A stretch of DNA of 64,000 bases from a candidate division Kazan bacterium RIFCSPHIGHO2_01_FULL_44_14 (GTDB lineage: Bacteria > Patescibacteriota > Kazan-3B-28): contig METB01000001.1 of the NCBI GenBank assembly GCA_001771185.1, positions 186,631 to 250,630 of the forward strand. The letters are read 5' to 3'. A program made the position numbers and the translations under genes. Positions within the stretch are counted from its first letter, which is position 1. The number at the start of each line of letters is the position of its first letter. The notes below the pieces were generated by a model. It worked only from the letters and a program-made list of their open reading frames with translations, was not told the DNA's origin and made no database searches. Below, piece after piece: positions 40,916 through 42,787 of this stretch.

Positions 40916-41659
40916 CATGATAATCCATTATTACTAATGGCATAGACTATATCTTCATCCTTTCCGCCCACCGGCGGAGGAGGAGGTGGCGTGTGATTCT
41001 GCGCTACGGCAAAATCTCATCAGTTGTTCTTGCTTTGAACAATTGAATCAGTCGTTACGGGGAACAAGATGATGTGTTTGCAGAAATTGTTTGACCGTTG
41101 CTTGCGTGGTCGTGCGTTTCTTTGAGTAATTATACTTTGCGGTTTCATCCACTAGAGTCGCTCTAGCAAGCAACTCTTGGGGAGTGATTCTCTGGTATGA
41201 AGAACCAATGCCCTTAACGCATAAATCAATAACCTTCTGCGCTAGGACTTGTTTCAGTTGCAGATATGGCAACAATTTGGTTAAAACTTCGTAGACCGGC
41301 TGATACCCAACAATCGTGTATTCAGCCATCTGATCATTACGAACACGAACATATCCATGTTTCAGGTGGCCCTTAAGCCATTCGAGAAAGTGTTTTCTGT
41401 CTTCTTTTTGATAAAAGACAATGCTGACTCGAATCTGATAGCCGTGGACATATCCACTCCGTTTCACCAGTTGCGCCATAATGCAACCATCTCCATCCAA
41501 AAATCCTGCAATGTAAGCAAGTAATGTTTCTGCCATTATCTTGATCTTCCCTCGGGGTTACCCTTTTTCCGTTCGGTAGGAAAGTAGGGTTTCTCCGATA
41601 CAGCCACATTTATTGTACCGCATTTCTGCGGTAGAACGCAATGTGATTTACGTTCTGAA
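40916..41659 (-). mobile_element. Group I-type intron (744 nt) in 23S domain V, inserted between ...GGGTTCAGAACGT and CGTGAGACAGTTCGG (the E. coli ~2586-2593 region), encoding a LAGLIDADG homing endonuclease.
   Basis: Flanking exon sequences align to E. coli ...UAGAACGU|CGUGAGACAGUUCGG; the 5' exon ends in U, the insert ends in G, and it contains the 41048-41536 ORF. Confidence 0.75.
41048..41536 (-). CDS. LAGLIDADG homing endonuclease (single-motif, I-CreI-like size).
   Basis: MAETLLAYIAGFLDGDGCI... motif; 162 aa; located wholly inside the 23S intron. Confidence 0.85.
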   Translation of the reverse strand: MAETLLAYIAGFLDGDGCIMAQLVKRSGYVHGYQIRVSIVFYQKEDRKHFLEWLKGHLKHGYVRVRNDQMAEYTIVGYQPVYEVLTKLLPYLQLKQVLAQKVIDLCVKGIGSSYQRITPQELLARATLVDETAKYNYSKKRTTTQATVKQFLQTHHLVPRND

Positions 41660-42291
41660 CCCAGCTCGCGTGCCACTTTAATCGGCGAACAGCCGAACCC
41701 TTGGAACCTGCTCCAGCTCCAGGATGTGACGAGCCGACATCGAGGTGCCAAACCGCTTCGTCGATATGGACTCTTGGAAGCGATCAGCCTGTTATCCCCG
41801 GGGTAACTTTTATTCGTTGAGCTTCGGCGCACCCATGTGCAACCGTCGGATCACTATATCCTGCTTTCGCATCTGCTTGACTTGTAGGTCTCGCAGTTAA
41901 GCTCCCATATACTATTGCGCTATCGTCCCGATTTCCATCCGGGACTAGGGAACCTTTGAACGCCTCCGTTACTTTTTAGGAGGCAACCGCCCCAGTTAAA
42001 CTACCCACCAAACGCTGTCCTCCTGCCAGATAATGGCTAGGAGTTAGAATTAAAAATGCATCAGGGTGGTATTTCACCGTTGACTCGCTGATGGCTAGCG
42101 CCACCAGGTCATTGTCTCCCACCTATCCTACACAAATAAATCTCTAACCCAACGCCAGGTTGTAGTAAAGCTCCACGGGGTCTTTTTGTCTTGCTGCGGA
42201 TAGCCGGCATCTTCACCGGCAATGTAGTTTCGCCGAGTCCCTCTTTGAGACAGTCATCAGACCGTTACGCTATTCGTGCGGGTCGGAACTT

Positions 42292-42578
42292 CATGTTAAC
42301 TCTATTTTTCAATAGAGATCAGACTATACCTTCATCTTGTCGCAAACCGTAGGAGATCGTTTTCGCGATATCCATAGTTTGTTTGCTAGACAAGAGCTGA
42401 CGTGTTGTTCCGCTTTACAGCAGAACCTCGCCTTTCGGCTCAGTCGTTACGGGTCACCTTAATTATAAGGTGTTCCCTCGGTATTAGCATATCCCCATAG
42501 CATAAGGATTTAGCTTTCACCGATATGAGTCAGTTTGCTTTGTAGTGTTACCACTACATTCGGGCAAGTTTCCCACCT
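42292..42578 (-). mobile_element. ORF-less intron-like insertion (287 nt) in 23S at the position equivalent to E. coli ~1931 (GUCGGGU | AAGUUCCGACC).
   Basis: Exon sequence is continuous with E. coli after removing the insert; the insert ends ...GTTAACATG (3' G) and follows an exon U. Confidence 0.6.
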
Positions 42579-42598
42579 ACCCGACAAGGAATTTCGCT

Positions 42599-42787
42599 CT
42601 TAGATTCCTTACACTAAGGACCATGTCTTCACCCCGATTAGTCGGGGGCGTGGTGTATGGCCTCTTGTAGCCACGTATGGACTTTCTTTATGTTGCCATA
42701 AAGTAAGGTAGCATTTTGCGAGTTATCGTATCGCTTATAACAGTCCCAGTCCTTCTCGATTTAACAATTTTAATTGTTCAACCGAGA
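42599..42787 (-). mobile_element. Short intron-like insertion (189 nt) in 23S at the position equivalent to E. coli ~1917 (GGUCCUAAGGU | AGCGAAAUUCC), 20 nt upstream of the previous one.
   Basis: The exon 20-mer AGCGAAATTCCTTGTCGGGT separates the two inserts. The insert contains an exon-mimic GGTCCTTAGTGTAAGGAATCTAAG near its 3' end. It is short for a group I intron, so its class is uncertain. Confidence 0.5.

Follow-up and report, generated by a model that had tools for sequence, protein, structure and literature searches.

The 23S ribosomal RNA (rRNA) gene of candidate division Kazan bacterium RIFCSPHIGHO2_01_FULL_44_14, as found in a 64,000-nucleotide (nt) stretch of contig METB01000001.1 (positions 186,631 to 250,630; this whole stretch is called the window, and positions are given in its coordinates), is confirmed to contain three intron-type insertions at known large subunit (LSU) intron sites. 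In the interpretation which probably accounts for them, all three are introns of group I type, located at the sites L1931, L1951 and L2593 of Escherichia coli numbering, the smallest of them, at L1931, is a derivative from which the P4-P6 segment of the group I core has been deleted, and all three would be spliced. A 23S gene with several introns adds little in itself, since others have already been reported from Patescibacteria, cyanobacteria and Coxiella. Of more use is the result on the smallest insert, which belongs to a large conserved family that appears to represent a full group I intron minus P4-P6 and that is missed by standard models.

The 23S rRNA gene and its three insertions

The Rfam model LSU_rRNA_bacteria is aligned with the gene from model position 1 at 45394 to model position 2912 at 40621, which gives a 23S length of ~4.77 kb. 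A BLAST comparison with E. coli rrlH is collinear on either side of each insertion, with E. coli positions 1770-1931 corresponding to 42951-42788, positions 1952-2593 to 42291-41650, and positions 2594-2765 to 40915-40744. Each of the three inserts (3/3) is preceded by U and closed by a terminal G, and the borders can be read from the sequence unambiguously: CCUAAGGU / UCUCGG...CUAAG / AGCGAAAUUCCUUGUCGGGU for intron 3, where the downstream exon is a micro-exon, AGCGAAAUUCCUUGUCGGGU / AGGUGGG...AACAUG / AAGUUCC for intron 2, and CAGAACGU / AAAUCAC...AUCAUG / CGUGAGAC for intron 1 (a slash marks a border here and in the guide sequences of Table 1).

The initial annotation of this region had placed three insertions at documented LSU intron sites, and the E. 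coli alignment and the reading of the junctions agree with it. Its intervals for introns 2 and 3, for the 20-nt exon between these two inserts without an open reading frame (ORF), and for the ORF of 162 amino acids (aa) in intron 1 are exact, but its interval for intron 1, 40916-41659, overshoots the true end at 41649 and takes in 10 exon bases. The sites which it named, 2586-2593, 1931 and 1917, have to be replaced by L2593, L1951 and L1931; since the residues preceding the inserts are U2593, U1951 and U1931, its "1931 and 1917" are each off by one site. The gene size given there, ~4.85 kb, is somewhat above the Rfam span. The attribution to a lineage of the candidate phyla radiation (CPR) or Patescibacteria type is in keeping with the nearest rRNA locus, L026, which lies in a metagenome-assembled genome (MAG) labelled Candidatus Saccharibacteria, with the genomes in which the family of intron 3 occurs, and with the insertion sites reported for CPR genomes (Tsurumaki 2024, PMC11270868).

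Table 1. Positions of the 23S rRNA gene, its insertions and their structural elements in the window
Feature	Position	Strand	Basis or remark
23S rRNA gene with three introns and several hairpin expansions	40621..45394	(-)	Rfam LSU_rRNA_bacteria, E. coli collinearity
Intron 1, assigned to group I	40916..41649	(-)	734 nt, after E. coli U2593 (L2593)
Predicted homing endonuclease gene, single-motif LAGLIDADG, I-CreI family	41048..41536	(-)	162 aa, intact, in intron 1 peripheral loop
Intron 1 guide sequence GCGUUC	41634..41639	(-)	sequence reading, Rfam P1 alignment
Intron 2, assigned to canonical group I, ORF-less	42292..42578	(-)	287 nt, after E. coli U1951 (L1951)
Intron 2 guide sequence ACUU/GCCCGA	42560..42569	(-)	sequence reading, Rfam P1
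20-nt micro-exon between introns 3 and 2	42579..42598	(-)	AGCGAAATTCCTTGTCGGGT; RNA AGCGAAAUUCCUUGUCGGGU; E. coli 1932-1951
Intron 3, assigned as group-I-derived, without P4-P6	42599..42787	(-)	189 nt, after E. coli U1931 (L1931)
Intron 3 hairpin H1, beginning at intron nucleotide +1	42754..42787	(-)	covariation
Intron 3 strand a1 (GGACU)	42748..42752	(-)	pairs with b1
Intron 3 strand a2 (GGACU)	42742..42746	(-)	columns 46-49 invariant or nearly so
Intron 3 guide sequence GCU/ACCUUA	42704..42712	(-)	complementary to ligated exons
Intron 3 P2 hairpin, GNRA loop (GCAA)	42686..42703	(-)	covariation
Intron 3 strand b1 (AGUCC)	42679..42683	(-)	partner of a1
Intron 3 P3 (CGUGGC with CCACG), enclosing UACAA and P7 5' strand	42649..42675	(-)	covariation, homology
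Intron 3 P7 5' strand: G124, bulged A, GGCCAU	42657..42664	(-)	homology to R element
Intron 3 P8 hairpin	42632..42647	(-)	mutual information 210:247, 212:245, 214:243
Intron 3 J8/7 and P7 3' strand, UGAAGACAUGGUCC	42618..42631	(-)	matches canonical group I S element
Intron 3 P9 hairpin, loop AGGAAU, terminal G	42599..42617	(-)	covariation

Other kinds of insertion do not fit these data well. A relationship to group II introns, which had also been contemplated, is not borne out: the Rfam group II models matched nothing in 40300-43100 at E<=1, and a search of the whole window at the gathering score gave no match either. All three inserts consist of several helices and interrupt conserved single-copy sequence, which is not the pattern of intervening sequences (IVS) of the ribonuclease (RNase) III type, and the IVS-like hairpins which this gene does possess lie at other places. 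The metagenomic source of the data raises the question of whether the multi-intron gene is an assembly chimera. The chance of this is negligible: a 5.7-kb region recurs at 99.98% identity in two further assemblies and at 99.2% in one from a different project, and the related MAG L026 contains the same order of L1931 intron, 20-nt exon and L1951 intron. The same gene layout in independent assemblies therefore indicates that it is no assembly artefact. Besides L026, five loci have an insertion at L1951 that follows this 20-nt exon.

Introns 1 and 2

On the evidence of sequence and model matches, introns 1 and 2 are conventional group I introns. Intron 2 is matched by the Rfam model Intron_gpI (RF00028) at 54.7 bits, where the gathering score is 50, with model positions 1-253 covered; its fold has a z-score of -7.4, and its homologue in L026 is matched by the same model at 65.9 bits. 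The GCCCGA part of its guide forms P1 with the 5' exon sequence UCGGGU, U·G wobble included, and the ACUU part forms P10 with the 3' exon sequence AAGU, and a U at the exon end paired to a guide G, a terminal G and a P10 complement are thereby all present. In intron 1, P1 is formed between the guide GCGUUC and the 5' exon sequence GAACGU, with a U·G wobble as its last pair, and the canonical GAAGAUAUAGUCU element (the S element, comprising J8/7 and P7) is present. The group I features found in this intron comprise the U·G splice site, the terminal G, the P1, P2 and P4-P5 region, the S element, P8 and P9, and P1, P2, P8 and P9 are seen to fold when the ORF is exchanged for a loop.

The ORF of intron 1 is matched by the Pfam domain LAGLIDADG_1 (PF00961) at 5e-11 and 43.8 bits, compared to a cutoff of 23.1, which bears out its earlier description as a single-motif LAGLIDADG protein. 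Its matches among proteins in the PDB, which range from 6e-24 to 1e-16 and extend over nearly its full length (residues 5-153), include I-CvuI (6e-24), I-CreI (~1e-21) and I-MsoI (6e-17); its motif reads LAGFLDGDG, and the pattern LAGFxDGDG is conserved between it and these relatives. It resembles them in size (162 aa, compared to 152-163 aa for the solved I-CreI chains), in its single LAGLIDADG motif with GDG, and in the position of its host intron at 23S position 2593, since I-CreI, I-MsoI and I-CvuI are homing enzymes of the L2593 site. It differs from them by many substitutions in the aligned regions and by its bacterial host, where theirs is the green-algal chloroplast. By domain, motif and size it is an LAGLIDADG homing endonuclease of the I-CreI subfamily, for which cleavage is predicted, and intron 1 would be mobile: a homodimer of the predicted enzyme would cut intron-less 23S rDNA at 2593, and repair would copy the intron in. 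An identical protein is encoded on 11 metagenome contigs.

An ORF-less homologue of intron 1 was expected in L026 and is ruled out, because the 2593 site is intact there. L026 has instead an ORF-less group I intron of ~280 nt after U2604 (6375-6654, minus strand), with an Rfam match at 6435-6653 of 77.3 bits; the intron content of neighbouring sites therefore differs between close relatives.

The intron 3 family and its secondary structure

The distribution of intron 3 was determined by scanning 185,579 GTDB species genomes for any insert of 160-220 nt exactly between U1931 and A1932. This yields 73 loci, mostly in Patescibacteria MAGs, and 66 of the 73 have the architecture of intron 3, scoring 107-193 bits with a family model built from those 66; intron 3 itself scores 117 bits (family model R1), and its fold has a z-score of -3.7. 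The family, which is also present on many metagenome contigs, has no ORF of its own. The closest of the loci is L026, which is 90% identical over 1.3 kb, with a mean of 88% over the aligned blocks.

The structure was evaluated using an alignment of 67 sequences based on the family model, to which the following counts refer. In this alignment 86% of the cells in predicted helices are paired, compared to 69% in shuffled controls and 30-41% in controls in which the pairing partners were slid. The 5' domain is predicted to consist, in order, of the hairpin H1 starting at +1, the strands a1 and a2, the hairpin Hx1, which tolerates insertions, the guide ~75 nt from the 5' splice site, P2 and the strand b1. 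H1 has two-sided changes in 5/5 tested pairs and 98.8% of its cells paired, P2 has them in 7/7 pairs, which are also among the top mutual-information pairs, P3 in 6/6 and P9 in 3/3. The long-range helix a1:b1 is paired in 99.4% of cells; its terminal pair is U:A instead of G:C in 8 sequences, and the next pair is A:U in one, L024 (A37:U108). A nested alternative proposed by RNAalifold, in which a1 pairs with the S element and a2 with b1, was rejected because the change of G36 to U tracks that of C109 to A, and this, together with the L024 pair, fits a1:b1 only. The register of P8 is that of the mutual-information pairs, which is one off from the register in the family-model alignment. The AAGA of J8/7, the GUCC of P7, the AGGA of the L9 loop and the final G (67/67) are invariant, as is the GGAC of a2, which is complementary to the GUCC of the S element and is thus an alternative partner for the 3' strand of P7. 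Hx1 is the least secure of the helices, with 72% of its cells paired and no clear two-sided changes. Among metagenomic members without P4-P6, L171 carries a ~210-nt ORF-free insertion in the Hx1 loop and L104 one of ~190 nt in the P9 loop, and these two loops are therefore the expansion sites of the family.

The guide of intron 3 lies 75 nt into the intron. Its GCU is complementary to the AGC of the 3' exon (P10), its ACCUUA is complementary to the UAAGGU of the 5' exon (P1), and GCU/ACCU as a whole complements the ligated junction AGGU/AGC and resembles the CGCU-A-GCCU of a canonical L1931 intron. Four of the six positions of the GCUACC core (G76, U78, A79 and C81) are invariant, and the other two vary only from C to U opposite an exon G; variants are also present at the positions flanking the core. 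No conventional P1 is found beside the 5' splice site of intron 3, where H1 begins with the first intron nucleotide and the sequences flanking it have no pairing with the exon. The L9 loop AGGAAU is complementary to the AUUCCU of the 3' exon.

Absence of P4-P6

In a 2.8-kb search no Rfam group I match to intron 3 was obtained at E<=1; a search restricted to 216 nt gave 12.2 bits (E 0.72), and the homologue of intron 3 in L026 has no Rfam group I match. The weak alignment of intron 3 retains P3, P8, J8/7 and P9 and replaces a 99-nt stretch between the strands of P3 by 16 nt; in the window only 5 nt (UACAA) separate P3 from P7. The loop of the P3 hairpin, GAGAGACCAAC (GAGGCCAUAC in the window), with the P3 3' strand that follows it, is a homologue of the R element (J6/7-P7-J7/3-P3') of canonical L1931 introns, as represented by the Rfam-aligned L063 and L098. 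Since P3 runs directly into P7, P4-P6 is absent from intron 3, and it is this absence that makes the intron short. The P3/P7 pseudoknot, the J8/7 consensus, P8, P9 and the terminal G after P9 are present, and an Rfam score above the gathering score, P4-P5-P6 and a U·G-wobble P1 adjoining the 5' splice site are lacking. The 189-nt insert is thus not the standard group I intron with a P1-P10 core that the initial annotation had supposed, because P4, P5 and P6 cannot be placed in it. Nor is its size the anomaly for which it was taken there: the canonical L063, which has 194 nt and 50.3 bits, occupies the same site, and shortness alone is therefore not the oddity. Judged by its sequence and its relatives, intron 3 is a group-I-derived intron which lacks P4-P6 and which comes from a Patescibacteria-wide L1931 lineage.

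A different assignment of the core strands would identify P7 with a2:S and P3 with a1:b1, giving a rearranged topology in which the 113-139 hairpin loop has another role. The covariation of a1:b1, the pseudoknot which it would form with a2:S in the strand order of P3 and P7, and the invariance of a2 with its pairing to GUCC would all be expected from such an arrangement. It is nevertheless unlikely, since the loop and 3' stem of the hairpin have their homologue in the canonical J6/7-P7-J7/3-P3' of L063 and L098, since the pairing of R with S reaches 7 base pairs with a compensatory change in the subfamily to which the window belongs, and since column 50, beside a2, varies (U, G, C) with no matching change in S.

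The full-core relatives show what was lost. A metagenome scan with the 5' domain alone found 120 loci, in 78 of which the 3' exon was found, and the inserts in those 78 range from 191 to 906 nt. Some members, for example L098 (247 nt), have the same H1, a1 and a2, guide, P2 and b1, together with a complete P4-P5-P6 between P3 and P7. L098 is matched by Rfam at 65.9 bits, in an alignment that includes every element from P3 to P9; L063 and L098 are the only full-core relatives that were scored with Rfam. When L098 is compared with intron 3, ~70 nt are seen to be cleanly lost between J3/4 (UAUA/UACA) and J6/7-P7 (CAGAGAC/AGAGGC).

The presence of P4-P6 is correlated with the nature of the guide in 131 classifiable introns. 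In the 25 with the guide GCUGCCU, which forms the U·G wobble (three have C-to-U variants), the distance from the guide to S is at least 144 nt in 25/25, and the R element, located in 22/25, is never closer to the guide than 108 nt, which means that P4-P6 is present, with or without an ORF. In the 106 with the guide GCUACCU, which forms a U-A pair, the R element was located in 96, and in 95/96 it is 43-50 nt from the guide, which means that there is no P4-P6. J4/5, a part of P4-P6, contains the receptor of the splice-site wobble, and the joint loss of the wobble and of P4-P6 is therefore biochemically sensible. Two metagenomic L1931 introns with the same 5' domain, L143 and L182, keep P4-P6 and have an extended, different 3' end with no final G before AGCGAAAUUCC; L143 may be an intermediate form, and it hints that the guide base may have changed from G to A before P4-P6 was lost.

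Proposed mechanism and competing explanations

Removal of the three introns from the precursor rRNA would restore the region of helices 69 to 71 (H69-H71) and the peptidyl-transferase-centre region. In introns 1 and 2, the guide would pair with the 5' exon through the U·G wobble, an external guanosine would attack after the U, the terminal G would then enter the P7 site, and the exons would be joined. The branch that includes intron 3 would have arisen by deletion of the ~70-nt P4-P6 between P3 and P7. Here b1 would clamp back onto a1, the P3-P7-P8-J8/7-P9 half would supply both the guanosine site and the active site with group I chemistry kept, the 5' domain and the pairing of L9 to the 3' exon would hold the exons, and a protein or the assembling ribosome may assist. 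The micro-exon contains segments corresponding to P10 of intron 3 (AGC), to its L9 loop (AUUCCU) and to P1 of intron 2 (UCGGGU), and it may be bound simultaneously by intron 3, through P10 and L9, and by intron 2, through P1.

It is proposed, tentatively, that intron 3 and its relatives may represent a natural and widespread class of group I ribozymes without P4-P6 which splices, in which the 5' domain and the pairing of L9 to the 3' exon would position the substrate, a U-A pair would replace the U·G wobble, and a2 would be a possible switch that competes for the 3' strand of P7. It is also conceivable, if rather doubtful, that intron 3 is a crippled group I remnant which is spliced only with help, whether from a maturase-type LAGLIDADG protein, a host protein, or a scaffold of rRNA or ribosomal protein that stands in for P4-P6. 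In the ribozymes that have been studied, activity depends in part on P4-P6 and on the U·G wobble, and in intron 3 the former is missing and the latter is replaced by U-A; in addition, the family has no ORF of its own, and one LAGLIDADG protein is encoded in another intron of the window. Dependence of this kind is less easily reconciled with the guanosine-site core (P7, J8/7 and the terminal G), which is invariant in 67 divergent genomes and therefore argues for retained RNA catalysis, or with the occurrence of a second intron at the neighbouring L1951 site, the only one surveyed, in only 6/73 scanned loci. Engineered Tetrahymena ribozymes lacking P4-P6 are also said to retain activity.

A further explanation is that intron 3 is not spliced, and is either retained as an expansion of the mature 23S rRNA or excised by RNase without ligation to leave a fragmented rRNA, as with a classical IVS. 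This 23S does have several hairpin expansions at IVS-type sites, a group I intron at L1931 of Simkania is on record, by the title of a paper, as unspliced, and Rfam fails to recognise intron 3. The explanation is very improbable all the same. The insert lies between U1931 and A1932, in a universally conserved stretch beside H69; the preceding U, the G at its end, the intact J8/7 and P7 and the complement of the ligated junction are needed only for transesterification; and intron 3 is not a simple hairpin, unlike the IVS-type expansions. The strict conservation of the catalytic core and the location in H69-H71 therefore argue against retention or simple RNase excision, and the position in an essential rRNA region implies that RNAs without P4-P6 probably still splice.

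Several points weigh against the interpretation of the three inserts as group I-type introns, intron 3 being a spliced P4-P6-deleted derivative. The Rfam group I model, a check already envisaged in the initial annotation, recognises intron 2 and leaves introns 1 and 3 below the gathering score, intron 1 with 34 bits (E 2.8e-6). The score of intron 1 is low because its 489-nt ORF splits the core, and the 3' half of the Rfam alignment is misaligned, the ORF being at a spot where the model does not expect one; placement of the 5' strand of P7 in this intron by hand yielded weak candidates only. In intron 3, the A rather than G opposite U(-1) departs from the near-universal group I wobble, and the pairings P1, P10 and L9 with the exon carry no covariation signal, since the exons are invariant and were fixed by the search pattern. 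P7 in the main family consists of 4 invariant pairs and a bulged A, again with no covariation signal, and the helix of a2 with the same strand is equally long. In the five-member subfamily of the window, P7 has 7 pairs, including a compensatory change between C129:G166 in the window and U:A in L026; given that a2 can rival the four invariant pairs, the assignment of P7 rests on homology and on this five-sequence subfamily. L143 has an A-type guide together with P4-P6, and the link between the guide base and P4-P6 is therefore not absolute; it may also go back to one ancestral event and not to co-evolution on repeated occasions. Finally, the splicing of all three introns in this organism is inferred from sequence.

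Relation to known introns

Intron 3 may be compared with two kinds of RNA. Ikawa, Shiraishi and Inoue reportedly made, in 2000, an engineered Tetrahymena ribozyme from which P4-P6 had been deleted, a laboratory construct that is said to need unusual ionic conditions. It resembles intron 3 in that the catalytic unit is the P3-P9 half without P4-P6, and intron 3 differs from it in being natural, conserved and widespread and in having an extra 5' domain. The Omnitrophota intron L063 (194 nt) is like intron 3 in site, size class and guide (CGCUAGCCU compared to GCUACCU), and its R and S elements and P8 are very similar; it is unlike intron 3 in that its guide adjoins the 5' splice site and forms a U·G wobble, and in that it has P4-P6 and passes the Rfam threshold (50.3 bits).

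Multi-intron 23S genes have been described in several bacteria. In Coxiella burnetii the group I introns Cbu.L1917 and Cbu.L1951 flank a 34-bp exon (Raghavan et al. 2007), and the L1951 intron has 720 nt and an endonuclease gene (table in PMC1995217). The present gene resembles this arrangement in having two group I introns, one of them at L1951, which are separated in this part of the rRNA by a very short exon, and differs in that the sites are L1931 and L1951, the exon has 20 nt and the L1951 intron is ORF-less. In the LSU gene of Synechococcus sp. C9, the sites L1917, L1931 and L2593 are occupied by introns (Haugen et al. 2007, PMC1995217); like the present gene it is a bacterial 23S gene with three group I introns, of which the sites L1931 and L2593 are shared, and with single-motif LAGLIDADG genes. 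All the cyanobacterial introns have ORFs (666-748 nt) and are described as having complete cores, that at L1931 being IC1-like, whereas in the present gene only intron 1 has an ORF and the L1931 intron is without P4-P6.

The closest precedent is a survey of CPR genomes (Tsurumaki 2024, PMC11270868), in which 82% of 23S genes had insertions, clustered at 1917, 1931, 1952, 2593, 2604 and 2657; many were group I introns, either with single-domain LAGLIDADG_1 genes or ORF-less, and the insertions are stated to be removed from the transcripts. The sites 1931, 1952 and 2593 and the LAGLIDADG or ORF-less character of the inserts are common to that survey and the present gene. The P4-P6-less L1931 family is not described there. 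Classification in that study was based on Rfam, with short ORF-less inserts that had no match left as "uncharacterized", and earlier surveys may have filed members of the present family under such a label. No description of a natural P4-P6-less group I intron or of this L1931 family was found in the searchable literature, which does not prove that none exists; the family appears to be undescribed in a lineage whose multi-intron 23S genes are already documented. Annotation pipelines for rRNA and introns that are based on RF00028 will miss it. If its members are spliced, they offer a natural experiment on which elements of the group I core can be dispensed with and on substrate recognition without the wobble receptor, for which matched relatives with and without P4-P6 form a ready-made comparison.

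The survey also reported Candidatus Saccharibacteria as an exception without insertions (Tsurumaki 2024, PMC11270868), and the nearest relative of the present gene carries that label. Twelve loci with the L1931 intron, L024 and L026 among them, lie in MAGs that bear the label "uncultured Candidatus Saccharibacteria"; either this label has been applied loosely or the exception does not hold in general.

Other features of the window and its relatives

Apart from the 1210 nt of introns, further expansions relative to E. coli, at 44513-44704, 43737-43898, 45152-45264, 44850-45043 and 43219-43519 (all on the minus strand), jointly contribute ~660 nt to the 23S gene; among them are long AU-rich hairpins at classical IVS sites in H25 (E. 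coli 518-553, free energy dG -78) and H45 (E. coli 1163-1186, dG -61). A further hairpin module of ~109 nt occurs twice in the window with 89% identity, at 42995-43103 on the minus strand, as a 23S expansion between E. coli 1703 and 1770, and at 10170-10278 on the plus strand, in the gene for RNase P RNA. A GUGCUUCGCAC mini-hairpin and a long imperfect hairpin of CCAAUCU and AAAUUGG repeats make up this module, which resembles a mobile or duplicated expansion element common to two structural RNAs; no copy was found in loci L008-L080. The RNase P RNA is of class A (10083-10733, plus strand; 111.8 bits) and has 651 nt, compared to the 367 nt of the model, with three expansions at hairpin positions of ~135, 85 and 53 nt; no intron signal was found in this gene.

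Upstream of the 23S gene, within 18 kb (45395-64000), no 16S rRNA gene and no spacer transfer RNAs were found, and the 23S-5S pair is therefore unlinked from 16S; the genes def and fmt lie there at 46298-48057. Downstream, the 5S rRNA is at 39855-39971, and the ~650-nt spacer between the 3' end of the 23S gene and the 5S gene contains an ORF of 132 aa (40184-40582, minus strand) with hydrophobic stretches, which has no Pfam match on record and is an annotated gene on the matching ENA contigs.

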